Program-made: the position numbers and the translations under genes | Assembly (NCBI GenBank): GCA_963422385.1 | Contig: OY729432.1 | Coordinates: 1,237,666 to 1,301,665, forward strand | Length of the DNA: 64,000 nt | DNA from: Candidatus Binatia bacterium | GTDB lineage: Bacteria > Desulfobacterota > Binatia > UBA9968 > JAJDTQ01 | Direction: 5' to 3' | The notes under the pieces: generated by a model | Seen by the model: the letters and a program-made list of their open reading frames with translations, nothing else | Told to the model about the DNA's origin: nothing | Database searches by the model: none | In this document: positions 12,412 to 29,159 of the stretch, piece after piece | Position numbering within the stretch: the first letter of the stretch is position 1 | Layout: each line of letters begins with the position of its first letter

Positions 12412-13116
12412 TCAGCGGTCCGCGCTCTCCCATGTGCTGTGTAGGGTGTGCAAGAGTGCTTCGGCGTTCCGGGTGTCTTCTATCCAGCTCAACATGAACG
12501 CCCTGTTACCCGCATCCTTGATCGAACATCCGATATGCCAGCACCCTCTTTCATTCTCGTAGGCGAAATCGGACGGGAGATTCGCAGCCAGCAGTTCAAC
12601 CTTCAGCGGTCCCTGAACGCTGCCGAGAATGATGAAGATCGATCCGTCCATGTACGGATCGATGACGCGAACCGATTGCGTGTCGCGGCGAAAAATCGCC
12701 CTTATCTGCACGTAGGCATCGTGCTGTGTGCCTTGCGGGAAGAACAATTCGCGGACGGTTTCAGTTGCTGGCGCGAGAGTACCGCCGTCGATACGCCAGC
12801 AGATCCGCTGCAAACCGGCGTTGAGCTGTTCTACCAGACCCCCGAGGGCGAGTTCCTCGAAAACAATGAAAGCGACGCGTAGCTTGTCCTCCCCGTCCAG
12901 GGCTTCGTACGCTGCGTTGATCCGATGCCGGTACGCTGCCTTGCGGTACTTATGCGAGGAGTCTTCCCGCACCGTGAGCCTCCAATCGACCGTTACGCCG
13001 GACATGTCGATGATGCCGGGTATCTCATGGCTGTCGAGTTCGAAGAGGCATGCGACAATGACTCGCCAAGGGTCGCGTTCGCGCCTAGTCTTCCCATCGT
13101 CGTTAGGGAAAGACAT
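12412..13116 (-). CDS. hypothetical protein (island cargo, lower GC)
   Basis: 234-aa ORF with natural amino-acid composition in a lower-GC stretch; no recognisable motif by eye. Confidence 0.45.
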   Translation of the reverse strand: MSFPNDDGKTRRERDPWRVIVACLFELDSHEIPGIIDMSGVTVDWRLTVREDSSHKYRKAAYRHRINAAYEALDGEDKLRVAFIVFEELALGGLVEQLNAGLQRICWRIDGGTLAPATETVRELFFPQGTQHDAYVQIRAIFRRDTQSVRVIDPYMDGSIFIILGSVQGPLKVELLAANLPSDFAYENERGCWHIGCSIKDAGNRAFMLSWIEDTRNAEALLHTLHSTWESADR

Positions 13117-13177
13117 GCAGGGTTTCCAGGCTCCGTTTTCGTGGTCCGAACGGAAATGTCGGCAATGTGAGGTCAGG

Positions 13178-13998
13178 CTATGCGCCGTTTTCGACCAAGA
13201 GGTTGACCAACTTCGGATAGCGTCTCGCGATATCGGGATGACGGAGCAACCGGCTTTCCAGGTCGCGCTTTTCCCACCATTGGACCAGGAAATCTGTCAG
13301 TCTTCGCAGGTCTTCAAGATGATCGACGAGGGGAGCGGTGACGCGAGGATGCGCGATCAGCAGGAACCCCTTGGCATCGTGCCGCTCAAGGGTATCTCGT
13401 ATATCCTGCACATCGCCCTTCCCGACAGTGCGCCCGCGCGTTTGACCTAGGCCAGGATGCGTATGCGTTGCTTCTGGCGGTTGCCACGCGCAAAGTGGGG
13501 CCTCGGAATCGTCCAGTCGATCAGGATATCCCTGCTGCTGTCCCGGTCGTTGACACCGCCAACCGGCTTGGCGCGCGAAACGCCTGGTTCCCGGCGGAGA
13601 AGATCGACGAACAAATTCTCGAAGTTCCCCGCATCGAGCGAGGAATACCAGTCGGTGCGGGAATCGGCGAAGAAAACTTGATCCTCGGCCGTGCGCCGTT
13701 TCAAGAACCGCTTGCGCTCGGCATCGTAGACTTCCCGCCCACAATTCTCGCGGATGGCTATTAGCGTCTTATCGCCGAGAAAGATACAATGACTGTCGAT
13801 CGGAAGAAGCAGAGGCCTATCGCAGGGGCCGCCGGTCTTGTCCATGAGACGTTCGGCGAGCTTGATTGTCTTGAAAGGAACGACGTTAGTGATTCCATTC
13901 GCGAAGACCGCGAGCGCATGTTCGCCCGGTACGATGCTCCGGCGGTTCGTGCGTATTCGAACCGTACGGTAAGAATGGCGGGCTGTAGAGCATTTCAC
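13178..13998 (-). CDS. hypothetical protein, apparently frameshifted or split (two overlapping frames)
   Basis: Frame A 13447..13998 (...NFENLFVDLLRREPGVSRAKPVGGVNDRDSSRDILIDWTIP...) and frame B from about 13423 down to 13178 (GKGDVQDIRDTLERHDAKGFLLIAHPRVTAPLVDHLEDLRRLTDFLVQWW...) both look protein-like. They join only via a frameshift around 13424-13447. Lower GC. Confidence 0.38.
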
Positions 13999-14150
13999 TT
14001 TCGCCTGCGAGAATCGATCTGGTTACGTCCGCCAGTAGTATATCGGGCTCCGTTTCACGACCGATCCGGTGCCTGTCGTGCGTCACCGCCTTCCCCGGAA
14101 ACCGCTGTTGTGAATGCATGGAGTCCAATATACACCATAGCGTTGGAGAA

Positions 14151-14165
14151 ACACCAAAATGGTGT
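14151..14165. promoter_or_regulatory. perfect palindrome ACACCAAAATGGTGT (with extra ACACCA/TGGTGG half-sites nearby) upstream of the six-gene operon; candidate operator
   Basis: ACACCA at 14133-14138, ACACCAaaaTGGTGT at 14151-14165, TGGTGG at 14171-14176. A sigma70-like TTGCCA-18-CACAAT lies at 14197-14226. About 215 bp upstream of ATG 14380. Confidence 0.35.
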
Positions 14166-14379
14166 AAAATTGGTGGCCGTTTCAAGGAGTTAGGAATTGC
14201 CACAGCCAAAGTCGGAGAGGCACAATGTTGGCCTGTCCGAAGTCGACCTTCTGTGGCGTGATTGATCCGACGGACCATGTCGGAATTCGTGGCGTGGCAC
14301 CGCCACGGCCTCGCTCAGGATCTGCCGCTACGACGCCTCGAACCGGATTCGCGCGGCAGCAAGAAGGCGGGAGGATCGC

Positions 14380-16554
14380 ATGACGCATGATCCGGTGGTG
14401 CAGGACGATCCCGTTATCGCAACGGCGGAAGGAACGCTGCGGTTGCTGGACGGAGTTCGGCCACTCTACATGCTGCCTGCGGATCCGCTGGCGGAGGAAG
14501 TCCTGATCCCGGGCTTCCAGGCGGCGGGGAAGGTTGATTGCATCATGGTTGGGTTCTTCTCAAGCGAGGTGCTGGCCTCGCTTGCCCCCGGCCTCGCGAC
14601 CTACATCGCCGGTTCCGAGAACAGCTTCCGGCTTATCGTAAGCCCCCTGCTACAGACCGAAGACCAGGTGGCCATAGAGGACGGCCTGAAATCGGCGGAA
14701 GTAGTAGCGGACAGGATTCTCGAAGAACTGACCGTCACGGAGGACCTTCTTCAGCGCCATACGCTGAAGTGCCTGTCGTGGCTGCTCCGGGAGCGCAGAA
14801 TCGAAATCAAGGTCGCCCTGATGAAGGATGCTCTCTTTCATCCCAAGGTCTGGCTCTTCGAGAACAGGTCTGATGTCGTCGCGGCGCACGGGTCGAGCAA
14901 CGTAACCATTGCGGGCATTTGGAAGAACATCGAACAGATCGCCATATCCAGGTCGTGGCAGGACCCGAATCAGCGTTATATCACTGGCAAGCTTCGCTAC
15001 GAATTCGGCCGGTTGTGGGAGAACAAGGACGAGAACTGTATCGTCATCGCGATGCCGGAGGCGGTCAGACAGCGCCTGCTGCGGACGTACAGTTCAGAAT
15101 TCCCACCGACCGAAGACGAGCTGCGTGCTCTCTACGGTCGCGCGACAGGCGTATCGGAGGAGCCCGAACCCTACGAGGCCGTTTCAGTACCGGCGACGAG
15201 TTTCGCGATACCAGGCTGGCTGAGTTACAAAGACGGACCATTCGAACACCAGGGAAAAGCGGTCGATGCATGGGACGAGGCCCGGTATCGCGGTGTTCTG
15301 GAAATGGCGACCGGCTCGGGCAAGACGATCACCTCTATGATCGGCGCGTACCGTCTCTGCCAACGACACAAGCCTCTCCTGATCGTCGTCGCCGCGCCTT
15401 ATGTGCCGCTAATCGAACAGTGGTGCGATGAAATCGCGCCGTTCGGCTTGAAGCCGGTCAACCTCACCACGGCCGGGAGCGCCGCGAAACGCGCGAGCGA
15501 GTTGCAAAAACTGAAACGACGGCTGCGCACCGGCCTGTCGGATGTTGAAGCGGTTGTCGTCAGCCACGACACGCTGTGCACTCCGGAGTTCCTTGCCGCC
15601 ATCGAGGCGTTCGACTGCGCACGCCTACTGATCGCGGACGAGGTGCACAACCTCGGGCGGCCATCCTTTATCAACGATCCGCCCGAATTCTTCGAGTACC
15701 GTCTTGGCCTCTCGGCGACGCCGATACGCCAGTATGACGAAGACGGAACGGAAGCGTTGTTTGGGTTCTTCGGACCTGTGGCCTTCCGGTTCACGCTCGA
15801 AGAAGCCATCGGCCAGTGCCTTGTCGAATACGACTACTACGTCCATGCCGTGTACCTCACGAAAAGTGAGATGGACGAATGGTTCGACCTCACGGGAAAA
15901 ATCAAGCAGAACGCGTGGCGCAGTGAGGGCGGAAAGCCGGAAGAATATCTCGCCAAGTTGCTGCGGGACCGGCGCGCTTTGCTGGAGACGGCGTCGGGCA
16001 AGGTTGCCACCCTAGGTACTCTTCTGAAGGAAGAGAACACGGGCAACCTGCGGCACACGCTGGTCTACACGTCGGACAAGGGACCAGATCAGCTCGACAA
16101 CGTGAACCGGCTGCTGCGACACAGGAATATCCTGTTCCACCAGCTCACAGCCAAGGAGACAGCAAGCCGGCATCAGACGAAGCAGATCATCAAATCCTTT
16201 CAGGAGGGTGAAATCCAGATGCTGACCGCAAAGCGTGTGCTAGACGAAGGGGTGAACATCCCGCAGATATGCAAGGCGTTCATCCTCGCGAGCACGACGG
16301 TCGAACGGCAATGGGTGCAGCGGCGCGGGCGACTTCTGCGCAAATGCAGCGCCATTGGCAAGACTCACAGCGTCATCCACGACCTGCTAGCCCTACCACC
16401 GGGCATGGAGGAAGGGCTAGATACCGATGCGCGCGCTCTTGTGCGCTCAGAGCTGCACCGGGCACAGGAATTTGCGAGGCTTGCGAGAAATGCAGGCCGA
16501 CCGGACGGGCCGCTGGTGACAATCGATAGAATGGTTGACGCCGCGTTCCTGTAG
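14380..16554 (+). CDS. PLD-family nuclease / SF2 (DEAH-type, ResIII-like) helicase fusion protein
   Basis: 724 aa. N-terminal HxK...GSSN phospholipase-D-like motif (HPKVWLFENRSDVVAAHGSSNVT). Helicase motifs I (ATGSGKT), II (DEVHNL), III (LSATP), VI (QRRGRLLR). GGGAGGA 4 nt upstream of the ATG. First gene of the operon. Confidence 0.82.
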   Translation: MTHDPVVQDDPVIATAEGTLRLLDGVRPLYMLPADPLAEEVLIPGFQAAGKVDCIMVGFFSSEVLASLAPGLATYIAGSENSFRLIVSPLLQTEDQVAIEDGLKSAEVVADRILEELTVTEDLLQRHTLKCLSWLLRERRIEIKVALMKDALFHPKVWLFENRSDVVAAHGSSNVTIAGIWKNIEQIAISRSWQDPNQRYITGKLRYEFGRLWENKDENCIVIAMPEAVRQRLLRTYSSEFPPTEDELRALYGRATGVSEEPEPYEAVSVPATSFAIPGWLSYKDGPFEHQGKAVDAWDEARYRGVLEMATGSGKTITSMIGAYRLCQRHKPLLIVVAAPYVPLIEQWCDEIAPFGLKPVNLTTAGSAAKRASELQKLKRRLRTGLSDVEAVVVSHDTLCTPEFLAAIEAFDCARLLIADEVHNLGRPSFINDPPEFFEYRLGLSATPIRQYDEDGTEALFGFFGPVAFRFTLEEAIGQCLVEYDYYVHAVYLTKSEMDEWFDLTGKIKQNAWRSEGGKPEEYLAKLLRDRRALLETASGKVATLGTLLKEENTGNLRHTLVYTSDKGPDQLDNVNRLLRHRNILFHQLTAKETASRHQTKQIIKSFQEGEIQMLTAKRVLDEGVNIPQICKAFILASTTVERQWVQRRGRLLRKCSAIGKTHSVIHDLLALPPGMEEGLDTDARALVRSELHRAQEFARLARNAGRPDGPLVTIDRMVDAAFL

Positions 16555-16571
16555 CGGCTGGAGGAAGAGAT

Positions 16572-16817
16572 ATGGCACTAAACGACAAAAAGATAATCTC
16601 GATCATCCTTGAGCAGTACTCGGGAATCGAGAAACGGTGCGAAGGCTACCGGGAACAGATTATCCAAGTGATTTCCGAAATTCTGGAATACGAACGAAGC
16701 CACAGGGTCTCCGCGACGAATATCCAGAAGAAGATCAACGACAAGTGCAACGCCACGGCGCGGTTCCTTGCGACGCAGCGCGGCCAAGACACCGGCACGG
16801 AGGAACTGGACTCATGA
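16572..16817 (+). CDS. small hypothetical protein (81 aa)
   Basis: Natural composition (MALNDKKIISIILEQYSGIEKRCEGYREQIIQVISEILEYERSHRV...). Its stop overlaps the next start (ATGA at 16814-16817), indicating translational coupling. Confidence 0.5.
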   Translation: MALNDKKIISIILEQYSGIEKRCEGYREQIIQVISEILEYERSHRVSATNIQKKINDKCNATARFLATQRGQDTGTEELDS

Positions 16818-18949
16818 AACTTCTCCGCGCCGAATTTCAGAACTTCCGTCTGCTCCGCGACCTTGAGCTTGAATTCTCCAGCGATCCCGACAGGAAGCTG
16901 ACGGTCATCCGCGCGGCGAATGAGTCGGGCAAGACGACGATCCTTCACGGCCTGCAATGGGTGCTCTATGGAGACGGGGCGTTACCTGGTAAAGGCGAGG
17001 GCTTTCGGCTCCATCCTATCGACTGGGATGCCAGCGAAGGCCAGCGCGTCCCGATCACAGCCACGGTGAAGTTCGAGTTGACGAAGTATCGTCGCACTTC
17101 AGGTGAAATGCGCGAAATGCGCCGGCGCTATCGCCTCGTGCGCTCCGCATTCGAGGATGTCGACAGTCAGGTCCATCGTTCCGCCTCGACCGTGAAGCTG
17201 TTTGCGCTGAACGAGACTGGAGCAAGTCCTATCGACGCGCCGGAAGCTCTGGTCAACGAGGAACTGCCGCCGGAGCTGCGGGAAGTCTTTTTCACCGATG
17301 GCGACCGGGCTCTAAGCTTTATTGAGGCGGATATCGCCCTGTCCACAAAACGCGAGCGCGTGCAGCGGGCGATCCGTTCCCTTCTCGGCCTCGGCGTGAT
17401 CGACGACGCAATCAAGCATGTGCGCAAATCGGCGGCGGAAGTGAACAAGAAGGCGAAACAGGTCGGTGGCGGCAGCGAACTGAACGCAATCGCTACGCGC
17501 CTCGAAGAGATGGAAAACAACCGCGAGAAATTAGAGGCCGACCTTGATGACGCGAAACAGCAATTCGGCGCTTTCGACGAGAAGATTGACGAAATCGATC
17601 GCAAGATCGCAGCGGCCCTCCAGAAGGGTGACAAGGAGAAGCTGCGCAAGGACCTCGACCACGCACGGGCCGAAATCAGGCACTTCGACAGCCAACTGGC
17701 GGCAGCGAACAAAGAACACTCGGCACTGTTTCACAGTCGGTCTATTGCAACCGACCTGCTCGCACCTGTGCTCACGGGCGCATTTGACAAGCTGGAAGAG
17801 TTGCACGACCAAGGCAAGATTCCGAACACGACGATCCCAGTGCTGCATGACCGCCTTGAAGCAAAAGTGTGCATTTGTGGCGAAACGCTGGAACCTGGTA
17901 ACCCGGGTGGCGACAAGCGCCGCGCGCGTATCCGAAAGCTGATCGACGACAACCAGCGCGTCGATGAAATCCAGGAAATCATCACAGACCTGTACTACAG
18001 CGCAAAGCCGCTACAGGGCAGCGGCGGATCGAGCGGGTGGCTAGAGGAATACAAGAAAGTGGTCAAGGGTCGCGACGGCATCCAGGCACTACGCGACAAA
18101 GCGGGCCGGAAGTTCCGAGCGCTGGAAATGCAGCTCGACTCGCTTCCCGACACGGACATCCAGGGCCTGCGCGAAACGTGCCGCCAGTACAAGGACAATC
18201 GTGACCGCCACCTGTCGAAAAGGTCGGCCATCGAAACCCAGCTTATGGGGCTGAGGCGCGATCGCGAAGGGATGGAAGCGAAGCGCGACCGCCGGCTGCG
18301 CGAACAGAAAAAGGGCGCGCGTATTCTGGCCGAGCGGGACGTCACGCAGGACGTGATGAAGGTGCTGAAAAGCGCTTATGCGCAAATTACGAACGAGGAA
18401 TTGCAAAAAGTCAGCGATCTGATGAACAGCATATTCCTCGAAATGATCGGTGCGGACCCTGAACAGGGCGCAATCATCCGGCACGCTGAGATCAGCCCGG
18501 AATTCGATATCATTGTCTATGGTCCGCAGGACAGGACACTTAACCCCGACCGGGACCTGAACGGTGCGTCACGGCGGGCGCTGACGCTCGCATTCATTCT
18601 GGCGCTGACGAAGGTCAGCGAGGTCGAAGCGCCGAATGTGATCGATACGCCGCTCGGCATGACGAGCGGCTTTGTGAAACGGTCTATTCTGCGCACGGCC
18701 GTGCGGGAGAGTGCGCAACTGATCCTGTTCCTGACGCACGATGAAATCGCCGGCTGCGAGGAGATCATCGACGAGGCCGCGGGCGTCGTCTTCACGCTGA
18801 CGAACCCGGCGCACTATCCGAAAATGCTCATCAACGATCCGGGGGTCGTCGAGCGCAAGGTGGTCCGCTGCGCCTGCGACCACTTGAACGAATGTGAACT
18901 CTGCCAGCGCCGCTCGGATGCGGAGGTCGAGTTGGGTATAGCGTCATAG
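16814..18949 (+). CDS. SMC/Rad50/DndD-like ABC ATPase with coiled coil, central CxC zinc hook and C-terminal Cys cluster
   Basis: 711 aa from ATG 16814. N-terminal FQNFRLL...IRAANESGKTTILHGLQWVLYG Walker A. About 350 aa of coiled coil with KVCICGE in the middle. C-terminal ABC signature/D-loop region (LTLAFILAL...VIDTPLGM...LFLTHD) and CACDHLNECELC. Confidence 0.82.
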   Translation: MKLLRAEFQNFRLLRDLELEFSSDPDRKLTVIRAANESGKTTILHGLQWVLYGDGALPGKGEGFRLHPIDWDASEGQRVPITATVKFELTKYRRTSGEMREMRRRYRLVRSAFEDVDSQVHRSASTVKLFALNETGASPIDAPEALVNEELPPELREVFFTDGDRALSFIEADIALSTKRERVQRAIRSLLGLGVIDDAIKHVRKSAAEVNKKAKQVGGGSELNAIATRLEEMENNREKLEADLDDAKQQFGAFDEKIDEIDRKIAAALQKGDKEKLRKDLDHARAEIRHFDSQLAAANKEHSALFHSRSIATDLLAPVLTGAFDKLEELHDQGKIPNTTIPVLHDRLEAKVCICGETLEPGNPGGDKRRARIRKLIDDNQRVDEIQEIITDLYYSAKPLQGSGGSSGWLEEYKKVVKGRDGIQALRDKAGRKFRALEMQLDSLPDTDIQGLRETCRQYKDNRDRHLSKRSAIETQLMGLRRDREGMEAKRDRRLREQKKGARILAERDVTQDVMKVLKSAYAQITNEELQKVSDLMNSIFLEMIGADPEQGAIIRHAEISPEFDIIVYGPQDRTLNPDRDLNGASRRALTLAFILALTKVSEVEAPNVIDTPLGMTSGFVKRSILRTAVRESAQLILFLTHDEIAGCEEIIDEAAGVVFTLTNPAHYPKMLINDPGVVERKVVRCACDHLNECELCQRRSDAEVELGIAS

Positions 18950-18955
18950 GAGGCG

Positions 18956-19420
18956 ATGATGACGGATCGATATTTCAATCCGTTCCAGGCAATCGATATC
19001 AACGTGCCAGTCGAATTCCATGAGGCGTTCATACGGTACTGCCAGCGAAGCGCCAACGCGGTGATCGACCAGAGCCCGTTTCCGCGCATGGTCGATCTCT
19101 GGTTCCTGTCCGTATGCGTCGCGAGTCGGCTCGGGCTTGATCCCGCCGACATCGCGAAATTCGATACGCGCAAGATCATTGATGGGTCGATATTTGGCAG
19201 CGATCCATGGCGTGTTCACACGATCATGCTCATTGCGATTGGCACATTGGGCGATGTGCAGGTCGTCTCCGAACCCCGCAAAATGATGACGCTGGCTAAC
19301 GGCCTTGCCGTGGCCGGCCTTCCAAAAGTCATCGAAATGCTCAAGGACGGCGATGCGGAACCGATCTGGAACCTGTCGGACGCTGTTGACGCTCTCTTGC
19401 GCAAAGAGAGGACAGCGTAG
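18956..19420 (+). CDS. hypothetical protein (154 aa) coupled to the SMC-like ATPase
   Basis: ATG 7 bp after the ATPase stop, with GGAGG spanning that stop. Natural composition; no motif recognised. Confidence 0.55.
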   Translation: MMTDRYFNPFQAIDINVPVEFHEAFIRYCQRSANAVIDQSPFPRMVDLWFLSVCVASRLGLDPADIAKFDTRKIIDGSIFGSDPWRVHTIMLIAIGTLGDVQVVSEPRKMMTLANGLAVAGLPKVIEMLKDGDAEPIWNLSDAVDALLRKERTA

Positions 19421-19534
19421 GAGCCGGTGCATGTCGATATCGGTTTGTGGGAATGCCTGGCGAAAAGCCGAATTTGGTGGCAGCAGTTGGGCGGGCGTAA
19501 TTGGGAAGCCGCATAACAAACGGAGATAAACGGC

Positions 19535-21907
19535 TTGTTCAAGATTTGTGCCCGCACAGTTCTGGAGCTAGGCGCTGAACTTATCAGTTCCGATGTCATC
19601 GCGTTCTATGAACTGATCAAGAATGCATTCGATGCCGAGTCCCCGACGGGAGCCGAGATTCGTTTCGAGATCACCCTGAGACGGAACGATTACCTGAAAT
19701 TCCGCCATCGGGCGGTCGAAGGACTTGCAGATATAGAGCATCTGAAATCCGACATCGAGAAATCACTCGACCAGTCGGCGCCGAAGGACTCACTGAACCG
19801 TTTCCGCAACGCGATACAGGGTGCGGATAATCTGGAAGAGCTTGTTGGAGTTCTGGACGCGGCGCACGCTTCGGAGAACAGGATTATCGTGTCCGACGAG
19901 GGCACGGGGATGTCGCGACAGGATTTGATAGACAACTATCTCGTTATCGGCACGGCATCGCGCAAGCGCGCGATCAACGCGGCCCTTGCGGGACACCACG
20001 CGGGAGACCGGCGCGCCCCGTTCCTCGGCGAGAAAGGCATCGGTCGGCTGTCGGCGATGCGACTCGGCGACCGGCTGATGGTCGAAACGGCCGAGCGTCG
20101 CGACAAGCGGCTAAACCTGCTCAGGATCGACTGGTCGGTTTTCGAAGACCTCGACGCGATGCTGGACGAGATCCATGTCGCGCCCGAGCATGGCACGTCC
20201 AAGCCGGATGGGAACTGGAGCGGCACGAAGCTGATTATGACCGCGCTCACTGCGGACTGGACGCATGATCGCGTCAAGCATCTTGGCGAGCATGATATTG
20301 CGCGGCTGACCGACCCGTTTGCCGATGTGAAACGGCGTCCACGTATCGCGATCTTCTGGAACGGCACACGCATCCCGGTTGCTCATATGAATCGAAACCT
20401 GCTGTCGCACGCCCATGCGTCCGTCAAGGGCCGGTTCATATACAGAGAATCAGGACCGATGTTACAGTGCACTTTCGAGGCGCTCGATCTTGGGTTTGAG
20501 CATCCGCACGAAGTGGAGAAGAGAGAATTTGTGCGGGCCGACCTCGAGGGCTCGATCATCGGTACCTCCAGCGAAGTTCCGTTGTCCGCACTTGATGGTC
20601 TTGGACCGTTCGAGTTCGAGGTCTACTGGTTTAACCGGCAGCGCCTCGGTCGCATCGACAGCATCGGCGACCGAAAGATTGTCCGTGACCTGCAAAGGAG
20701 GTGGTCAGGAATCCTGCTGTTCCGCGACGGGTTTCGCGTACTTCCCTATGGGGAAGATGATGACGACTGGCTTGCTCTGGACCGGCGCGCTCTGGCCAGC
20801 ACCGGATATCTCTTGAACAAGACACAGTTCGTCGGACGAGCCACAATCTCCCGTCTTGGCAATCCGTTGCTGATTGACCAGACAAACCGTGAAGGCTTGC
20901 GGGTTTGCTCCGAACAGCAAGCGTTCGTCAGCTTGTTGCAGCTCGCTATCCAGTCTCAGCTTCGCGATTTCATCCGGGAAGTCGAGCGCCGTCACAAGAA
21001 CCAACCTCTTGACATGACCGAGGCAAAGACCGGTGTGTCGAACCTCGAAAAGAGAGCGAAGGCCGCCCTCCGCCAGATCAGGAAAATTGCACCACAGTCC
21101 TCCGAGACGATCGAGGAATTGCAGCACACCTTCTTCGAGATCAAGGAGTTCTTCGACCGGGCGCAGCGCCGAATCGACGAAGTGGAGAGCGAGAACCGAC
21201 AGATGGTGCAGATGGCGGGCGTGGGTCTCTTGGTCGAAGTTGTAGCGCATGAACTTGCGCGATCGACCGAGAATGCGCTGGCGGCTCTTGAGGCTCTGCG
21301 CGGCAGGGACCTACCGGAACAGATCGGCGGCCTGCTCAACGCCCTCAGATCGGAGATGACATCGGTCAGTAAACGCGTCCGCGTGCTCGACCCGCTGAGC
21401 GTATCAGGACGACAACGCAAGGAAAGCTTCGATTTCGGCGCGTTGATTGAGGACATACTGAGCGGGCACGAGCTTCAGTTCGAACGTCATGACGTAAAAC
21501 TCAAGGCCAGCTTGCCTGACAACACCGTCCGCATCCGCGCGGTGAAGGGCATGCTCGTGCAGATTTTCGAAAACCTCTTGTCCAACTCGCTATACTGGCT
21601 CGACCTCCGTAAACAGCATGAGCCAAACTTTCGGCCGCGGATTGCCATTGCGATGGAAGACGACCCTCTCACGATCATCTATGAGGACAATGGCCGCGGA
21701 ATTGCACAAGAGAATCGTGAAAGCGTCTTTCGTGCCTTCTTCTCTCTGAAGGAGAAGTCGAAGCGCCGGGGGCTTGGCTTGTATATCGCGCGCGAATGCG
21801 CAGAATATCATGGTGGCAGCTTGACGCTGGACAATCACGTCAATCGCCAGACGGGACGCCTTCACCGTTTTGTGCTGCGACTGCCGGACGAGGTTATGGT
21901 CTCGTGA
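19535..21907 (+). CDS. dual GHKL ATPase: N-terminal MORC/MutL-like domain plus C-terminal histidine-kinase-like (H-box plus HATPase_c) module
   Basis: 790 aa. N-terminal N-box ELIKNAFDA, G1 DEGTGM, G2 GEKGIGRLS. C-terminal VAHELARSTEN (H-box-like), N-box ENLLSNSLYW, G1 EDNGRGI, G2 GLGLYIAREC. A 115-bp gap upstream suggests a possible internal promoter. Confidence 0.78.
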   Translation: MFKICARTVLELGAELISSDVIAFYELIKNAFDAESPTGAEIRFEITLRRNDYLKFRHRAVEGLADIEHLKSDIEKSLDQSAPKDSLNRFRNAIQGADNLEELVGVLDAAHASENRIIVSDEGTGMSRQDLIDNYLVIGTASRKRAINAALAGHHAGDRRAPFLGEKGIGRLSAMRLGDRLMVETAERRDKRLNLLRIDWSVFEDLDAMLDEIHVAPEHGTSKPDGNWSGTKLIMTALTADWTHDRVKHLGEHDIARLTDPFADVKRRPRIAIFWNGTRIPVAHMNRNLLSHAHASVKGRFIYRESGPMLQCTFEALDLGFEHPHEVEKREFVRADLEGSIIGTSSEVPLSALDGLGPFEFEVYWFNRQRLGRIDSIGDRKIVRDLQRRWSGILLFRDGFRVLPYGEDDDDWLALDRRALASTGYLLNKTQFVGRATISRLGNPLLIDQTNREGLRVCSEQQAFVSLLQLAIQSQLRDFIREVERRHKNQPLDMTEAKTGVSNLEKRAKAALRQIRKIAPQSSETIEELQHTFFEIKEFFDRAQRRIDEVESENRQMVQMAGVGLLVEVVAHELARSTENALAALEALRGRDLPEQIGGLLNALRSEMTSVSKRVRVLDPLSVSGRQRKESFDFGALIEDILSGHELQFERHDVKLKASLPDNTVRIRAVKGMLVQIFENLLSNSLYWLDLRKQHEPNFRPRIAIAMEDDPLTIIYEDNGRGIAQENRESVFRAFFSLKEKSKRRGLGLYIARECAEYHGGSLTLDNHVNRQTGRLHRFVLRLPDEVMVS

Positions 21908-23814
21908 CGGAGCTGAAGGATCTTCTCGCAGCACGGGGAATCACACGCGCCCTCGTCATAGACGACGTGTTTGACTCCCTTCCACGTCCCGAGGAACTCA
22001 ATGACGGTGATTGGTCGAATTTCTTCGATGACCTCGGCGATGCCGGAAACGAACTGCTCAAGGAATTGTATAAAGGATATGAAGAAGCATCAGCCGAAGA
22101 GCTGAAGGCATCTCAGGATTTTATCACGGTAGTTTGGGAAAACCGTACGAAACTGCCGAACGCGGCCTGCGATCACCTGTTCCACGACTATGAGGAGACG
22201 AAGACTACGGAACGCGCGGGCCTCGATGTGCTCGTCGGCGCACTGGGAGCGCTGGGGCTGGCCTGCACAACGATGGGGCGCGAACTTAACGAGGGAGCGA
22301 AGCAAGCAGAGCTGATCTTTGTCGACTTGTTCTTGGGTTTCCATCAGTCCGAAGACGATATGGAACGAGCAGTCAGACGTGTCGGTGAACTGGTCGAAGG
22401 GCGTGTTCAGAACCCGCCGCTCGTCGTCCTCATGTCACGTAGTCCCCGGCTTCAGGAAAAACGAAACGAGTTTCGGGACACGGCGGGACTCTTAGGGTCC
22501 ACGTTTCGCGTCGTCAGCAAAGCTGACCTCGCCAGGGAAGGAACGCTGGAGACCCTGTTGACGCGGCTGGCGAATCACTACGAGGACGCAAAACGTGTTG
22601 CTGGCTTTGTCCATGCGTGGGACAGCGGCCTCGACCAGGCACGGCGGAATTTTGTCCGCATACTGCGCCGTCTGGATCTATCGGACCTTGCACAGGTGCG
22701 GGCGCTGCTGCTCGACTTCGAGGGGCAGCGCCTCGGTGAGTATCTTCTCGACGTTGCCGACCGGGTTTTGCAGCATGAGATAGAAGATGACGACAATACG
22801 ATTGCGGCGGCTCTGAAGCTGAACAAAATCGATTTGAGAAAATACCCAGCCCCGCATCTGGCCGGTTCTCCGGATTTGCAGGAACTCGTGCACCGCATGG
22901 TGTTTGTGCACCCTGATCGCCTGCGTCTTTCGGCGAACGAAAACAAGGTGCAATTGCAGTTTGGCGACGTGCTGCGTTGGAAGGCTGATGAGGGCGATGG
23001 CTACGGTGGTGCTGTTTCGCTGGTCGTGAGTCCGGCATGTGATCTTGTGCGCGACGGCGCCGAGCGCGTCATGCTGCTTTCGGGTACGCTCGAAGAGCTT
23101 CAGCCCAAGAATTGGTCTTACAGGGCCGGCCCGATCAGAACAGCCATTGTGATACTACCCGACGAGGGGCGGAAGTGGATCAGGTGGAACCTCAAGAATG
23201 TCAGAAGCCTGGAGTGGAACAAGCTGGACAAGTTGATCGGAGAGGACGTCAGTCTAAAGCGCATTGGCCGGCTCCGGGAAATCTACGCAATCGAAATCCA
23301 GCAAATGCTCCTGACGAACCTAGGCCGAATCGGCCAGCCCGCGAACCTGCCGGTCCCATTCCCGGTTGCCATTTCGTTGTTCTACGTAGGAATCGATTGC
23401 AAGGCGCGTAGACTTGCTGTCAACCATATCGACTCCGCTGCCTGCTACGTCGGGCGCGGCGAAAGGCCGCAACCGGTACACCGGCTGGTCCTGTCGGAGC
23501 AAACTTGCGATCACATAGAGCAGGCTTTGCAGGCGTTGGGCCAGGATGCCGTTCGGCAATCCGCCCAAGCCAGCCTTGCAGCCGTAAAGGCGGACCGCGA
23601 CTTCTTCACCAAGTTCGAGCGAGGCGAGATCGAGATGCCCACCGACGCAGGCACGAAGGTCATCAAGGCGGACAACAATAGGGTCTATGCCGCGATCATT
23701 CGAGGCGGAAAATTCGACGAAGGAAGTGATATCGTAGGCGAACCCCGGAAAGCGGCTTTGATCGTCAAAGTGACGGATATCGCCGGCCATGACGGGGACC
23801 AAAACGGTCCCTGA
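21904..23814 (+). CDS. hypothetical protein (636 aa), last gene of the operon; possibly a receiver-like N-terminus
   Basis: GTG start overlapping the preceding stop (GTGA). N-terminal ...RALVIDDVFD... and later ...LIFVDLFLG...PPLVVLMSRS... resemble a degenerate receiver domain (inference only). The remainder is unassigned. Confidence 0.6.
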   Translation: MTELKDLLAARGITRALVIDDVFDSLPRPEELNDGDWSNFFDDLGDAGNELLKELYKGYEEASAEELKASQDFITVVWENRTKLPNAACDHLFHDYEETKTTERAGLDVLVGALGALGLACTTMGRELNEGAKQAELIFVDLFLGFHQSEDDMERAVRRVGELVEGRVQNPPLVVLMSRSPRLQEKRNEFRDTAGLLGSTFRVVSKADLAREGTLETLLTRLANHYEDAKRVAGFVHAWDSGLDQARRNFVRILRRLDLSDLAQVRALLLDFEGQRLGEYLLDVADRVLQHEIEDDDNTIAAALKLNKIDLRKYPAPHLAGSPDLQELVHRMVFVHPDRLRLSANENKVQLQFGDVLRWKADEGDGYGGAVSLVVSPACDLVRDGAERVMLLSGTLEELQPKNWSYRAGPIRTAIVILPDEGRKWIRWNLKNVRSLEWNKLDKLIGEDVSLKRIGRLREIYAIEIQQMLLTNLGRIGQPANLPVPFPVAISLFYVGIDCKARRLAVNHIDSAACYVGRGERPQPVHRLVLSEQTCDHIEQALQALGQDAVRQSAQASLAAVKADRDFFTKFERGEIEMPTDAGTKVIKADNNRVYAAIIRGGKFDEGSDIVGEPRKAALIVKVTDIAGHDGDQNGP

Positions 23815-23817
23815 GAC

Positions 23818-24657
23818 CTACTTGTGGCAGGCAAGACAAACCTTTGCCTGCCCGTACAGGTCGTCAATGTCCAGCGGCTCGATATCCGGCCTTAAGGGGT
23901 TGGTCTGTACCTTCGAGCGCATCCGTGCAAGCCGTTGTTCATGATCCTGCCTGATCTGTTCGACGCGATCCGGCCGTTCCAGATCTTCAAGCGACTCCCC
24001 CTGACTCCAGGTAAAAGGCGAGCCGTGCTCGACGGCGTTCTTCTCGTATGCCTTGGCCTCTTCGAACGCCTCAGGGTGCTGCTCTTTGAGCCGTACCCAT
24101 TCAATCTTTTGCTGGAAGAAGCAGAAGGTGCAGCCGCTACGCGTGCGCCAGGAATAGTATTTGGGTAGACCGAGCCCAGCCCCATCGAGAATCTCAAGGA
24201 CCCCTGCCTTGTCGATCCCCGCCTGCTTGAACGGCAAGTTGATGACCAGGTTGTCGTGCTTGGAAGAATAGCCTTCGCGGTATTCCTCATCGCTGCGGAT
24301 CGCGACGTAACTATGGACCGTCGTCCCATCGACCAGCAGCGGGCGAAGCCAGTGCTCGAACGGACGGAGTTTTAGCTGCCGCGTGCACCAGCGCGTCTGT
24401 GGCGAAGGAAGGAAATCATTGTATTGCTTGAGCCAGAAGTCGAAGTCGCGGTCCGGGTTCAGTTTGCGTATCGGTTGACCGAGAAATCCCTCCAGCAGCC
24501 CGAGATATTCGTAAACCTCGGGCAGTTCCTTGCCCGTATCCGTAAAAAAGTATTCGATTTCGAGTTCGGGGTGACGCTGTCGCATGTAAACGGCGAGCGC
24601 CGCGCTGTCGCGCCCGCCGGATAGGCCAAGTACGTGTTTCACAGGACCGGTCGTCAA
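23818..24657 (-). CDS. sspD: SspD/DndC-like PAPS-reductase-family ATP pyrophosphatase (phosphorothioation)
   Basis: 279 aa with PP-loop LSGGRDS and conserved Cys cluster (CTFC...). TTG start overlaps the sspC stop. Small size fits SspD rather than the roughly 500-aa DndC. Confidence 0.8.
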   Translation of the reverse strand: MTTGPVKHVLGLSGGRDSAALAVYMRQRHPELEIEYFFTDTGKELPEVYEYLGLLEGFLGQPIRKLNPDRDFDFWLKQYNDFLPSPQTRWCTRQLKLRPFEHWLRPLLVDGTTVHSYVAIRSDEEYREGYSSKHDNLVINLPFKQAGIDKAGVLEILDGAGLGLPKYYSWRTRSGCTFCFFQQKIEWVRLKEQHPEAFEEAKAYEKNAVEHGSPFTWSQGESLEDLERPDRVEQIRQDHEQRLARMRSKVQTNPLRPDIEPLDIDDLYGQAKVCLACHK

Positions 24658-27600
24658 GAAGCGGCCTTTTCTTTCCCATTTTTTTGTGCAGGCGGATAAT
24701 TTTGCATGTAGCGCGTGCTGAGTTCCGCCAGCGCCGCCAGAATGATGCTCCGGCGGCTAGTGTCGGCGGCCTCCAACGAGGCGGCAACACGCTCGATGAG
24801 ATCATTGACGGCAACACGGTCGGCGTCGGCGATGTCGAATTCCTCGAGCAGCGGCACCGGCCGGCCGTCCATACCGATGATGACGGCCATGGCCTGTCGC
24901 TTGTCGGGGCGGCCCTGAACGCGCGCATACGTCTCGGCCCGGAGGAATTTCTGCGCCATGTCGGCAAGCTCGATTGCCGCATGGTCTATATCGGGATCGA
25001 CCCATTCACGCGGCGACTTGTTCGCGGCAAGACTCGCGATCCCTTCGAAACTCTCGTCCGAACCGTCGAACTGCGCCAGTCGGCCGACGAAGGCGTCGAG
25101 CCGGAAATCTCCGGCAAGCCGCCTGATATTCTCGGCGCGCTTGCGCAATTCCACCAGGGACTGCGGAGAGACGTTAGGAACCTGCATCTCCTCCAGCATG
25201 ATATCGCGCAGGCGGTGAAGCATCGACGGATAGGCCATTACCAGTTCTTCCAGGCCTTCGCGGACGCTTACGACGACACGGCGCAAACCGTCTTCGTCTT
25301 CATTGGCAAGCGAAACGTCTTCGCCAAGCGTTTCCGGTATGTCGTCGAACAGGAACCGGTTGGGATCGTGCGCCCGTTTGAACAGATCGCGAATTTTTAC
25401 AGCATTGGATGACAGCCGCATCGTCAGCCCGGTCCATTTGGGAAGCCGGTCGTAGATCCCGACAAGGCCGCGCCCGACATCGATGGGCTCCAGGTGAACA
25501 AGCTCGTTCGCGTCGTCGAGATCGCGGACTACCTGCGCCATACCCGACAACAAGCGGCGTGCAACATCGGTCAGATCCATCCAGCGCAACTGGATGAAGG
25601 TCGGGTCCTTGGCAAGATACTCCACGTCCACGTCGTCGAACTTGGTCCTAAATATGCCATTCCGGTAGACCGCCAGTTTTTTGTGCTGGGACAGAACGAA
25701 TGCTACGGCAAGGATCGGCATGAGACCGTCCTTCACGCCAAAGGGCATCTCGCGCCATAGTTCGAACAGCTCGGATACCGCGACGGTGCGCGAGGAGCGT
25801 TCCTTCACATGGTCGAGCGCGGCAGTCCACAGCGGGGCCAGGTGGCAAGGATCTGCACCATTCGTCGGGGCAACGAATCGCCACCCCTTGCCTTCCCGGG
25901 CATAGAGCCCAGTCGCTTCCAGGACGGATTCGAACAGCCCACCCTCGGCCGGGTACCCTTGGATACCAAGGCGAGCTTCGCCCTCGTTCAGGACCATGCG
26001 GCGCAACAGGGCGTTCTGTGCCGCGATGGCATTGCTTGACGGTTTCTGCCGACTCAGCAATTCGTTATGCAGCCGCGGCGACTTCGCGAAGCGGCGGTCT
26101 GCTAGCTCGGAGGCGATGCCGTTCAGATCGGCCTGCCGCAGGCGTTTGGGCAGGTAGTTTTTCCGGAACCACAGCGCATTGTCGAATGCCTTGTGCAGTT
26201 CGGTTTCAAGCAGGGCCTGCAAGGCCGCAAGGCGAGCGGAGACTTCCCGCCGCGCAACGAAATCGCCCGCGAGTTCCGGATGATCATTGCTGACACTATC
26301 GAGCGCAAACAGCTCCCGCGCTAGGGGCACAACTACCCATGACTTTTTCGAAATCCCGACGACGACGTCCCATGCATCGCTATACCGCGCGGCTTTGCGG
26401 CACAGGTCCTCGGCACAGGCCTCGCTCTCTCCCTCGGTCGGAATCGCCAGCAGGAATTGTCCTATAGCGCCGTTCTCCGGCCCAAGCCTCGTGGCGAATT
26501 CGACGAGGCCACTGATCGGCACGACGTATACGTCGAACCATCTCAGCGCGCCGGTGTCATGATAGTGGCGCTTGGCGAGGATCGGCTGAAGTCCCGCGAC
26601 GGATTTCAACTCGGTGAAATCCACCTCGTCAATCTCGTCGAGCGCGGCCCGCACCGCTCTATCAATATCGAAATCGCTCCCTGCGAAGATGGCGCGTGCG
26701 TCGAGGAATTTCTTGAAGATCGTGAACGACCATGTGTCCAGTTGCGAGAGCACTTTTTCAAGCGCCTTGTCCGATGTACCGTGGAAACAGGTGCGCAGCA
26801 GGTCAAAATTTGCCACGAGGCCCGAGCGTTCCTTGAACAGGTCAATGACGGCGATTGTCTTGAGTAACCCGACATGAAGGGAGTCGCCGCCAATGGATTC
26901 GCATCGTTCGATCGCTTCCGCTGCCAAGGCCCACCGATGTCCGTCCGGCGAAGCGAGGATGGACGGTTCCAGGTTGGCGCGAAGATAGTCCCAAAGCCGG
27001 TCGGGGCCGTACAGTTCGCCGTCCCCGTCATGGTTCAGATAGTCCTGAAATCCGTGCGGTTCGGAGGAATTCAGGAAACCGAATATGCTGCGCTGATTTT
27101 GCCCGAATCGCCGCCGCGATATCGGTCCAAGCAAACAAGCGACAACGGGATGCAGTGGCCAGCATGCTTCCAGCATTGCGGCGAGCCGTGCAACGTCACC
27201 AGCGCGTTCCCGACGTGCGAAACCGGCGACGGCGGACGCGAGCGGGCCGGGCTTCTTTGGACGATAATCACTCTCGATGGCGCGTGAGATCAGGTCGATT
27301 TGCTCTTCAACCGCAGTGTTGACAACGAGGTCGATGAAACGCCCCTGAACTTTCGCCCACTCGTCGCGCATTTCGTGCGAGAGGCGATGGGCGTATTCCT
27401 CGAACGCTTGGTGCAACACGCCGATGACAAGAAAACGCCCCTTGCTTCGCGACGCGGCTTCAGCAAGCTGCTGGAGGATGTAGATGTCGGAGCCGTCCCG
27501 CGCGGCGGCCTCCAGAAACTTGCCCATCTCGTCGATGACCAGGACTAGCCCGCCGTGCGTCTTCGGCCTGGATGCAGCCGCCTCGGTCAGGGTGTCGATC

Positions 27601-28049
27601 AGATTGCTTTCAGTCCAGCCGTCGCGTGGCTGCCGTGCCACGAGTCCTGTTCGCTTCACAGCCTCGCCGATGACCGCGACGGGGTCGTCGCGACGCGCGA
27701 CGACGGGAAGGATGCGCCATCCCTTCGTGCCTGTCGGTAACGCGGTCCAGATCGTTTTCGCCAGATTCTGTCCGAAGACCCCGGCGGCCTCCTTCTGCAA
27801 ACCGGCCTTGCCCCTCAGCAAGGCGCTCAGGGCCACGACGAGGCTCGATTTGCCGCTGCCGTAGGGACCTGTCCATGTGAATGCGCCTTGGCCCGTTTCG
27901 GAGACGTGGCGCGCCATCGTTGCCAGAACATCGGCGGATGACTGCGGACAAATGAATCCTTCAAGGGCGGCGGCGTCACCGAGATCGGCATCAATGCGGA
28001 TCGATCTGAGAAAACGGCGGGCGATCCAGACACGTTCGTTGAGCACCAT
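24654..28049 (-). CDS. sspC: SspC-like large P-loop ATPase (DUF499/BrxC-like)
   Basis: 1131 aa with N-terminal Walker A TGPYGSGKSSL and Walker B LVLVIDEMGKF. ATG 28049 is preceded by GAGGAGG and overlaps the sspB stop (ATGA). Confidence 0.75.
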   Translation of the reverse strand: MVLNERVWIARRFLRSIRIDADLGDAAALEGFICPQSSADVLATMARHVSETGQGAFTWTGPYGSGKSSLVVALSALLRGKAGLQKEAAGVFGQNLAKTIWTALPTGTKGWRILPVVARRDDPVAVIGEAVKRTGLVARQPRDGWTESNLIDTLTEAAASRPKTHGGLVLVIDEMGKFLEAAARDGSDIYILQQLAEAASRSKGRFLVIGVLHQAFEEYAHRLSHEMRDEWAKVQGRFIDLVVNTAVEEQIDLISRAIESDYRPKKPGPLASAVAGFARRERAGDVARLAAMLEACWPLHPVVACLLGPISRRRFGQNQRSIFGFLNSSEPHGFQDYLNHDGDGELYGPDRLWDYLRANLEPSILASPDGHRWALAAEAIERCESIGGDSLHVGLLKTIAVIDLFKERSGLVANFDLLRTCFHGTSDKALEKVLSQLDTWSFTIFKKFLDARAIFAGSDFDIDRAVRAALDEIDEVDFTELKSVAGLQPILAKRHYHDTGALRWFDVYVVPISGLVEFATRLGPENGAIGQFLLAIPTEGESEACAEDLCRKAARYSDAWDVVVGISKKSWVVVPLARELFALDSVSNDHPELAGDFVARREVSARLAALQALLETELHKAFDNALWFRKNYLPKRLRQADLNGIASELADRRFAKSPRLHNELLSRQKPSSNAIAAQNALLRRMVLNEGEARLGIQGYPAEGGLFESVLEATGLYAREGKGWRFVAPTNGADPCHLAPLWTAALDHVKERSSRTVAVSELFELWREMPFGVKDGLMPILAVAFVLSQHKKLAVYRNGIFRTKFDDVDVEYLAKDPTFIQLRWMDLTDVARRLLSGMAQVVRDLDDANELVHLEPIDVGRGLVGIYDRLPKWTGLTMRLSSNAVKIRDLFKRAHDPNRFLFDDIPETLGEDVSLANEDEDGLRRVVVSVREGLEELVMAYPSMLHRLRDIMLEEMQVPNVSPQSLVELRKRAENIRRLAGDFRLDAFVGRLAQFDGSDESFEGIASLAANKSPREWVDPDIDHAAIELADMAQKFLRAETYARVQGRPDKRQAMAVIIGMDGRPVPLLEEFDIADADRVAVNDLIERVAASLEAADTSRRSIILAALAELSTRYMQNYPPAQKNGKEKAAS

Positions 28050-29005
28050 CACGCATCCTCCTCAGCGGGCCCGCCGTAATCGCCTCGAATCCACAACAAG
28101 GCTGCCTCTTTACTGATTTCGACGTTGCGCTCAACATGCTTTACCCCGGCGGTTTCGGTCCAGCGGAGCGCGCCGCCCGTCACGTCTTCGAGCGTCGCCA
28201 AGCGGTCAGCCACATCGTTCTCATCGAAAAGGAACACGCGGCCAGGCCCGCCGGGCGCATGGGCGATGGCCTCGAACGAGAGCGTGGCGACATTCGGAGC
28301 GTAGCGCGACCAGAAGTCGATCAGCGCATAGGTAAAAACAGCATCGCCCAATGTCGTCTTGGGACCTCGCACAAAGCGGAAGCCGTCCTTCCTGCCGATG
28401 GCCTTGATCAGCCCGAGTTCCGTGAGAGGCGACTCAAGCGCGTCGTCGTGCCCGGTCTTGCCGGACAGTTGCCGCGCGACATAGGTGCGAATGAAACATG
28501 CGACGTCATTTCTTATCGTCGTGTTAGCGGGCTGAGGCCAATTACGGTCCTTGGCAAGACGGTCGAGCCTCTTGATTAGCCCGTCCCGCTCGAAGGTGAC
28601 GGCGGGATAGTGGCTGAACGCCCAGAACCACGTCGTCTTCTCCTCGCGGGCCGCCAACTGCCAATGGATCAGCCACAGCGTGGTGGGGTGCTCCATATAC
28701 GGATCAAGGCCTTTCGGGCCGAACAAGAGATCACCGAGTTCCGTCGTTTGAACGGAAGTCGTTTCCGGCTCGGAGATTATTCCGCTGGCTTTCGCCCAAT
28801 GGCGCATCGACGTGACCATGTTCTTGCCGACGCCGAATCGCGCGATGGCGTCTTTGTCCCAACAGGCGGCCCTGTTGCCGGGTCGGTCTTGGGTTTCAGC
28901 GACGCGGTCGTACACCTTCTTCAGCCACCCGTAGCGCAACGGGAAGGTATCGTGGCCTGAGAATTGCGGGATGTAGTCTGTTTGATATAAAGGACCGTGT
29001 GACAT
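28049..29005 (-). CDS. sspB: SspB-like protein (DUF4007-type; proposed nickase of Ssp systems)
   Basis: Start set at ATG 29005 (GAGGGGAG immediately upstream), giving MSHGPLYQTDYIPQFSGHDTFPLRYGWLKK... (318 aa). Position between sspA and sspC, size and N-terminal motif fit SspB; the family call needs HMM confirmation. Confidence 0.68.
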   Translation of the reverse strand: MSHGPLYQTDYIPQFSGHDTFPLRYGWLKKVYDRVAETQDRPGNRAACWDKDAIARFGVGKNMVTSMRHWAKASGIISEPETTSVQTTELGDLLFGPKGLDPYMEHPTTLWLIHWQLAAREEKTTWFWAFSHYPAVTFERDGLIKRLDRLAKDRNWPQPANTTIRNDVACFIRTYVARQLSGKTGHDDALESPLTELGLIKAIGRKDGFRFVRGPKTTLGDAVFTYALIDFWSRYAPNVATLSFEAIAHAPGGPGRVFLFDENDVADRLATLEDVTGGALRWTETAGVKHVERNVEISKEAALLWIRGDYGGPAEEDA

Positions 29006-29159
29006 GCTCCCCTCGGTCACTGGATGATGCCTCCAGTTCGACTGTAGCCGACGAGTCATGCTATGGTCAACAGATACTTGGATGGTGCACCTAGAAGCAC
29101 ACGGTCGCCGGAACCCCGGCAATCAACAAGCCTTTGTGGTTCTAACTCATTGAAGCACA

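Follow-up and report, generated by a model that had tools for sequence, protein, structure and literature searches.

A phospholipase D nuclease-helicase protein in a 'Candidatus Binatia' genome is probably the PbeA subunit of a PbeABCD module genetically coupled to SspABCD

A 64,000-nucleotide stretch of the genome of a 'Candidatus Binatia' bacterium (assembly GCA_963422385.1, contig OY729432.1, positions 1,237,666 to 1,301,665; hereafter the window) contains, at positions 14380-16554 of its forward strand, an open reading frame (ORF) which a first-pass annotation of the DNA had described as a phospholipase D (PLD) nuclease fused to a superfamily 2 (SF2) helicase. With a probability of about 80%, we identify this ORF as PbeA, which provides the motor and nuclease of a complete PbeABCD module that is genetically coupled to the phosphorothioate (PT) modification genes sspABCD instead of dndCDEA. 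At the protein level this is an ordinary PbeA belonging to an already named family, and at the system level the locus represents a known system in a form coupled to Ssp. Our statements on the function of the locus are inferences from sequence, predicted structure and gene linkage.

The pbeABCD genes were defined next to dndCDEA in Haloterrigena jeotgali A29, where a PLD domain is combined with ResIII and Helicase_C in PbeA, PbeB is a protein of 66 aa, PbeC an AAA_23 ATPase and PbeD a protein of 152 aa (Xiong et al., 2019; PMC6459918). A subsequent analysis described PbeA as the fusion of an HKD endoDNase with an SF2 helicase and argued for DNA cleavage, with PbeB as a fast-evolving small protein, PbeC as an ABC ATPase of the CxC type that has a Zn hook, and PbeD as a cognate of DndE (Rakesh, Aravind and Krishnan, 2024; PMC10853773). 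The gene and the protein segments on which the present identification draws are as follows.

14380-16554, forward strand: pbeA, 724 aa, encoding an HKD/PLD nuclease joined to an XPB-like SF2 helicase (PADLOC, Pfam, AlphaFold2)
14437-15075, forward strand: PLD-fold domain of PbeA (residues ~20-232), with the HKD motif H154...N174 at 14839-14901
15238-16347, forward strand: SF2 helicase core of PbeA (residues 287-656), with motifs I, II (DEVH), III and VI and an XPB-like R450/D453 segment
16348-16554, forward strand: C-terminal tail of PbeA, 70 conserved residues, one strand and two helices in the model

The gene begins with an ATG that has a GGAGG 6 nt on its 5' side, and runs for 724 codons. 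Its product is matched by the PADLOC PbeA profile PDLC02707 over residues 33-705, corresponding to profile positions 14-665 of 672 (E=3.1e-191, 635 bits), and also by four additional PADLOC PbeA models. Close members of the family are labelled 'DNA phosphorothioation system restriction enzyme' in RefSeq, and proteins from 'Candidatus Binatia' metagenome-assembled genomes (MAGs) come nearest, at 87% identity. HMMER, run exhaustively against 1.84 billion cluster representatives, returned 1579 relatives at E<=1e-30; the best 150 are mostly full-length proteins of 680-740 aa, the remainder being shorter fragments.

A regular-expression scan of the translation located an HKD motif of the form H154-P-K156-x4-E-x9-G171-S-S-N174, containing the sole HxK of the protein, and helicase motifs I (GSGKT, 312-316), II (DEVH, 420-423), III (SAT, 445-447) and VI (QRRGRLLR, 647-654). 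Pfam gives confident matches to ResIII (E=2e-15, N-lobe, residues 287-450), Helicase_C (E=3e-8) and DEAD, and a weak one to PLDc_2 (E=2.7e-4, 21.2 bits against a cut-off of 27). When 36 PbeA-family representatives with 29-49% identity to the query are aligned, residues H154, K156, G171, S172, N174 and E185 are invariant together with helicase motifs I, II, III and VI, and PLDc_2 is matched by 30 of these relatives (best E=5.5e-12) and the NgoFVII PLD domain by six. Because the catalytic residues do not vary among the 36 relatives, and PLDc_2 and NgoFVII matches occur among them, we do not regard the PLD assignment as noise. R450 and D453 do not vary across an alignment of the closer family (A2). 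The ATPase core is intact and, by its best sequence and fold matches, of the double-stranded DNA translocase type. The fusion of a PLD nuclease to a DExH-type SF2 helicase, which was the first claim of the first-pass annotation, is thus confirmed by motifs that are both present and family-invariant. The same annotation allowed about 80 residues after motif VI; the tail is indeed short, but the exact count is 70. Within it K661, D668 and R694 are invariant in the 36-representative alignment. No Pfam, PADLOC or NCBIfam domain was matched in the tail, in keeping with the annotated lack of a C-terminal DUF3427/SRA-like reader, and with only one strand and two helices in the model it is too small for a reader domain.

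The whole protein was modelled with AlphaFold2 from an input of 51 homologues (46-87% identical), with a mean predicted local distance difference test score of 78.7. A Foldseek search of the PDB with this model placed SauUSI first (7clg_B, E=5e-20, 737 aligned columns), followed by XPB and XPB-Bax1 complexes (E ~1e-18) and then by CSB, SWI2/SNF2 remodellers and TFIIH XPB, and SauUSI is also the best solved structural match for the PLD domain. The outcome that the annotation had named as refuting it, an N-terminal domain of some other fold or without the catalytic His and Lys, thus did not occur. By sequence, the best PDB matches are to archaeal XPB (6p4f, XPBII, E=3e-20, and 2fwr; range 3e-20 to 3e-16) and SauUSI is matched at E=2e-5 only; in addition, the segment on the C-terminal side of motif III, LSATPIRQYDEDG, aligns with LTATPERDDG of XPB. 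We read the PbeA motor as a relative of the XPB motor, not as that of an XPB orthologue or a housekeeping helicase. Best matches to housekeeping helicases had been named in the annotation as refuting it, and XPB does lead the sequence ranking, but this does not make PbeA such a helicase: its N-terminal part is a nuclease domain, and it is encoded in a lower-GC (guanine plus cytosine) defence island.

Three genes follow on the same strand and complete the module.

16572-16817, forward strand: pbeB, 81 aa, its stop overlapping the start of pbeC (ATGA); position and size fit published PbeB
16814-18949, forward strand: pbeC, a 711-aa CxC-type ABC ATPase, DndD-like with a coiled coil (PADLOC PbeC E=6e-51; Pfam AAA_23)
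18956-19420, forward strand: pbeD, 154 aa, position conserved in 36 loci

The order pbeA-B-C-D is common to 36 related loci, and gene order and sizes parallel those of the published pbeABCD, with 81 aa here against 66 aa for PbeB and 154 aa against 152 aa for PbeD. At the position of pbeB most related loci have an ORF of 76-92 aa, and genes of 80 or 81 aa are called there. Searches with PbeB and PbeD, in which E values as high as 10 were allowed, gave no match in Pfam, PADLOC, PHROGs, NCBIfam or the sequences of the PDB. The RefSeq label for PbeD is 'DNA phosphorothioation-associated protein 4', and an hhalign comparison of PbeD with the RefSeq proteins of that name gives a marginal match (E=0.016). 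The PADLOC match of PbeC begins at residue 60 of the longer listed ORF. A CICG motif occupies PbeC residues 353-356 in the middle of the coiled coil and is kept in every collected PbeC homologue that aligns across the position, Dnd-linked and methylase-linked homologues included. A second cysteine cluster, CACDHLNECELC, lies at the extreme C-terminus of PbeC (residues 686-697; 18869-18904) and may be a further metal site.

The modification genes lie further downstream in the window, with sspD, sspC and sspB convergent to the pbe genes.

23818-24657, reverse strand: sspD, PAPS-reductase family, convergent with the pbe and kinase genes (PADLOC SspD E=1.5e-136)
24654-28052, reverse strand: sspC, a BrxC-like ATPase (PADLOC SspC E=0, 1333 bits)
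28049-29122, reverse strand: sspB, a DUF4007 protein (Pfam E=2.7e-86, PADLOC SspB E=7e-107, both from residue ~53)
29160-30347, forward strand: sspA, a cysteine desulfurase, divergent from sspB (PADLOC SspA E=1.4e-123; Pfam Aminotran_5)

Linkage of the two gene sets was followed in one genome per GTDB species, giving 37 loci from many phyla with PbeA relatives that are 52-87% identical, whose neighbouring genes were identified by tblastn with the window proteins in a 10-kb radius. The sspD, sspC and sspB genes were found within 10 kb of the pbeA homologue at 26 of the 37 loci, a raw count with no background rate for defence islands beside it. The linked sets are convergent at 15 of these loci, as in the window, co-directional at 10 and otherwise arranged at one; the co-directional loci have the order sspB-C-D followed by pbeA, mostly with gaps of 30-330 nt. 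Among the 11 loci lacking ssp genes, seven are truncated or disrupted, three carry the kinase pair described below and show no ssp gene in the remaining 2-3 kb, and one is intact.

Individual loci illustrate how close the association can be. On a Sphingomonadaceae plasmid (CP099618.1) the order is sspA-B-C-D-pbeA-B-C-D in a single direction, and sspD overlaps pbeA by 4 nt. In the betaproteobacterial MAG SCUF01000310.1 (L047:1-21908) the whole set, ordered as a helix-turn-helix gene, pbeABCD, the kinase pair, sspDCB and sspA, lies between a phage-type integrase and an AlpA gene with a DUF3987 primase, so that this ten-gene cassette is carried by an integrative element. A PbeA of 29% identity is encoded on plasmid pRinCIP108029a of Rhizobium indigoferae (L050:7330-18389), in the permuted order pbeB-C-D-A and convergent with sspD-C-B-A. 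Two metagenomic contigs (L040:2260-14723 and L041:2272-14723) encode sspB-C-D, an SspE-like GmrSD_N gene and pbeABCD co-directionally, an arrangement that places two different PT-linked effector modules behind one modification module.

If the linked genes act together, SspABCD would mark host DNA with PT, and PbeC and PbeD would form an ATP-driven coiled-coil complex that scans DNA and, with the PT mark, supplies the self/non-self decision and licenses PbeA. Single-HKD PLD nucleases such as Nuc, BfiI and SauUSI pair two copies to form one active site. As PbeA likewise has a single HKD motif, it should have to pair, and would dimerise through its PLD domains. It would then reach unmarked invading DNA by ATP-driven translocation along double-stranded DNA, nick or cut it and so block replication, with PbeB probably acting as a small regulator. 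The scanning role of PbeC-PbeD has been proposed before (PMC10853773), and the DNA-reading step assigned to PbeD is likewise adopted from the literature. On where the reader lies there is thus already a proposal in print, the PbeC-PbeD partners together with the PT mark, and the annotated suggestion that recognition is supplied in trans by SMC-like or small partner proteins and the PT mark is the same as that printed proposal (PMC6459918; PMC10853773). For Dnd-linked PbeABCD all four pbe genes and host PT are required, and PT-modified virus escapes (PMC6459918).

Several points weigh against the identification of the locus as an Ssp-coupled PbeABCD module, or against parts of the scheme above. 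We infer the functional coupling of Ssp and Pbe from gene linkage only. The pbeABCD genes are intact at locus L024 with no ssp gene within 10 kb, and other plasmid-borne PbeABCD modules stand beside dndBCDE, beside DNA methyltransferases or alone. The NCBIfam model TIGR04095 (dnd_restrict_1) matches PbeA residues 288-714 with 361 bits (E=9.5e-108) and so misses its cut-off of 600. An hhalign comparison of PbeD with DndE found nothing, the status of PbeD as a cognate of DndE, a ribbon-helix-helix DNA binder, coming from the literature. Lastly, and bearing on the nuclease step, Dnd-linked PbeABCD blocks viral DNA replication while the viral DNA is intact on Southern blots (PMC6459918). We take the TIGR04095 shortfall to reflect a subfamily that has diverged from the Dnd-linked seed sequences and not a lack of homology. 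If PbeA nicks DNA or cuts it heterogeneously, the negative Southern blot of 2019 would be compatible with catalytic residues that do not vary. As for the modules found elsewhere, PbeABCD combines with several modification systems and is not tied to one, Ssp being a frequent partner.

Four other readings of the locus were weighed. In the first, which we consider unlikely, PbeA is the same protein but serves abortive infection: the virus is sensed, for example through loss or modification of PbeB, and PbeA then cuts the host DNA and kills or arrests the cell. This alternative has been put forward in print (PMC10853773) and would explain the intact viral DNA of the Southern blots; PbeB is moreover small (81 aa) and, at 56-83% identity between loci, more variable than PbeA. 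The sequence does not separate suicide from a self/non-self model, but the lack of a growth defect on deletion of dndCDEA and the escape of PT-modified virus both favour self/non-self marking (PMC6459918).

Improbable in our estimation is a self-contained PbeABCD that is a mere defence-island neighbour of SspABCD and responds to a cue other than Ssp-made PT, or to none. The modules beside Dnd, beside methyltransferases, alone and once without ssp in the same clade would suit such independence, as would the published stress on 'mix and match' with its questioning of strict coupling (PMC10853773) and the fact that the window has the modules in convergent orientation, not as one operon, with two genes between them. 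Set against this are linkage in 26 of 37 genomes across many phyla and in two arrangements, sspD-pbeA gaps of 30-100 nt in several loci besides the overlap in CP099618.1, the inclusion of the whole set in the integrase/AlpA/primase element of one MAG, and the PT requirement of Dnd-linked PbeABCD (PMC6459918). We regard as equally improbable that PbeA is a translocase or roadblock only, its HKD domain binding DNA or phosphate without cutting and replication being blocked sterically. The H-x-K...G-S-x-N motif and E185 are invariant down to 29% identity, which would be unexpected of a degenerate, non-catalytic PLD domain, and the Southern assay would miss nicks or heterogeneous cuts, as the same laboratory has argued for SspFGH (PMC8092258).

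Hardly tenable is a stand-alone SauUSI-like Type IV enzyme that attacks modified phage DNA as a chance neighbour in the defence island: SauUSI is the top structural match of the whole protein and of its PLD domain and has the identical order of PLD and SF2 motor, but only 70 residues without a DUF3427/SRA-like domain follow motif VI, the sequence match to SauUSI is far behind that to XPB (2e-5 against 3e-20), pbeB, pbeC and pbeD always follow the gene in related loci with an intact module, and in the published genetics PT-modified virus escapes instead of being targeted (PMC6459918). The SauUSI-type resemblance noted in the first-pass annotation therefore stands as regards architecture and fold, but not as regards an unclassified Type IV enzyme, the protein being a named PbeA in a complete pbeABCD; and the Type IV logic runs opposite to genetics in which host PT is needed. 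SspFGH was also considered as the identity of the genes and was ruled out, as it is DndFGH-like and includes, besides a Walker A protein, one that is FtsK-like, but no PLD-helicase.

Between pbeD and sspD lie two genes that are an optional accessory of the Ssp-coupled PbeABCD module.

19535-21907, forward strand: gene for a 790-aa cytoplasmic protein with an N-terminal Hsp90/MORC-like GHKL ATPase and a C-terminal histidine-kinase core
21904-23814, forward strand: gene for a 636-aa protein, start picked by homology and overlapping the kinase stop; in every case accompanies the gene for the 790-aa protein

In the 790-aa protein Pfam matches HATPase_c_3 (111-204) and HATPase_c (673-785), and among PDB sequences it resembles the histidine kinases LvrB and FixL (515-785) and the Hsp90-family protein endoplasmin (102-191); its histidine-kinase core is complete, with the H-box VVAHELARS. 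For the 636-aa protein nothing was matched in Pfam, PADLOC, PHROGs, NCBIfam or the sequences of the PDB, even with E values as high as 10 allowed. Its 483 homologues are every one 'hypothetical' and none has a Pfam domain, and its orthologues are of 627-636 aa with a 4-nt overlap with the kinase gene. By eye only, its N-terminal ALVIDDVFDS looks receiver-like. The pair lies directly 3' of pbeD at 10 of the 37 loci. On one metagenomic contig (L048:1-11884) sspB-C-D are followed by a gene for an 812-aa protein without a Pfam match and then by the kinase/627-aa pair, with no pbe genes. The pair is linked to Ssp in its own right because on this contig it stands behind sspB-C-D in the absence of pbe, which suggests that, perhaps with the 812-aa protein, it constitutes a separate Ssp-associated module. 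A more tentative possibility is that the window holds an undescribed ten-gene mobile PT cassette in which one SspABCD serves both PbeABCD and, as a second module, the GHKL-kinase/636-aa pair. Were that so, PbeABCD, until now known with Dnd-type double-strand PT only, would need neither the Dnd machinery nor a given sequence context to read PT, and the kinase pair would be a new Ssp-associated sensor or effector using phosphotransfer.

The listed ORF of sspB (357 aa, TTG start) is probably ~38 codons too long, because the family profiles begin at residue ~53 and orthologues are of 318-319 aa; a shorter sspB would widen the divergent sspB/sspA intergenic gap from 37 nt to ~150 nt. Directly beyond sspA are genes for an EamA-type transporter and then MsrA. 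GC content is 58-60% at ~12-32 kb of the window as against 65-67% for the genome. This lower-GC stretch starts ~2 kb upstream of pbeA, where all ORFs but one lack a family match; a 234-aa ORF at 12412-13116 (reverse strand) has a weak PADLOC match to PDC-S05 (E=2.5e-10). Among the ten island ORFs scanned (12412-30347), PADLOC gave no match to SspE or to DndF, DndG or DndH, and Pfam and PADLOC gave none to a methyltransferase family; SspFGH-like genes were likewise not found near sspABCD in the window. The larger ORFs at 5-14.3 kb gave no recognisable integrase, transposase or other family, no tRNA gene was found in the whole window, and a promoter and terminator scan of 13.5-30.5 kb gave counts not above shuffled expectation.

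The new element is the Ssp partner of PbeABCD, the protein itself adding nothing new. In the literature searched we found no description of PbeABCD, or of a CxC-centred system, paired with SspABCD, although an earlier mention is possible. For 83.9% of sspBCD clusters the 2021 study of SspFGH reported that a restriction partner was not known, and it asked for 'more diversified restriction counterparts' (PMC8092258). Some of these clusters may have such a candidate partner in pbeABCD, given its recurrent linkage to sspBCD. Similarly, 320 of 553 pbeAC pairs were counted as 'solitary' in a 2019 census that predates the description of Ssp (PMC6459918), and some of these may be Ssp-linked too. The two PT machineries write different marks, a double-strand GpsATC from the Dnd proteins of H. 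jeotgali (PMC6459918) as against a single-strand CpsCA from the Ssp proteins of Vibrio (PMC8092258), so that one Pbe module used with two unrelated machineries amounts to a natural experiment on PT sensing. The plasmids CP099618.1 and pRinCIP108029a come from cultured strains, in which Ssp-Pbe coupling is testable.

Like SauUSI and XPB-Bax1, PbeA would act as a nuclease coupled to an XPB-type motor, but it belongs to neither family. SauUSI of Staphylococcus aureus, an ATP-dependent Type IV enzyme (PDB 7clg), is alike in having an N-terminal single-HKD PLD domain followed by an SF2 motor. It is said, in the paper on the 7clg structure, to be 953 aa long with a C-terminal target-recognition domain for modified cytosine. 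SauUSI acts as a single gene, whereas PbeA sits in a four-gene operon and has no C-terminal recognition domain. The archaeal XPB (Rad25)-Bax1 complexes (6p4f, 6p4o, 6p66, 2fwr) also pair an XPB-type double-stranded DNA translocase with a nuclease, but Bax1 is a separate protein, whereas PbeA carries its nuclease in the same chain, as an N-terminal PLD domain; the context of XPB is DNA repair and that of PbeA a defence island. Features of the XPB/Rad25 repair helicases are an N-domain that recognises damage, a RED motif and a thumb insertion; in PbeA the R450/D453 segment aligns with XPB beyond motif III. With Type III Res and Type I HsdR, PbeA shares the Pfam ResIII N-lobe, weak NCBIfam and PADLOC HsdR matches and the character of an ATP-dependent translocating motor, but those enzymes have a PD-(D/E)xK nuclease and a methyltransferase or specificity partner, in contrast to the HKD nuclease of PbeA, which has no Mod or HsdM/S gene adjacent.

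Among effectors of PT systems, SspE (a DUF262/GmrSD-type, PT-stimulated nickase) and SspFGH (DndFGH-like) share with PbeABCD the niche next to sspBCD, although the proteins are unrelated to those of Pbe, and the co-occurrence of SspE and PbeABCD on the two metagenomic contigs parallels the published additive case of SspE and SspFGH (PMC8092258). Direct equivalents of PbeA are the 'HKD endoDNase + SF2 helicase' of CxC ABC-ATPase/DndE-centred systems (PMC10853773) and the proteins of NCBIfam TIGR04095. The closest system overall is DndCDEA-PbeABCD of H. jeotgali, which is alike in the combination of PLD, ResIII and Helicase_C in a protein of ~700-725 aa, in a small PbeB, a PbeC with a CxC motif and a PbeD of ~150 aa, and in adjoining PT genes. 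It differs in that the partner there is DndCDEA and here SspABCD (single-strand PT, BrxC-like ATPase, DUF4007), in that a kinase gene and the 636-aa gene are inserted after pbeD here, and the PbeA of the window is only ~30% identical to the Dnd- and methylase-linked PbeA proteins examined.

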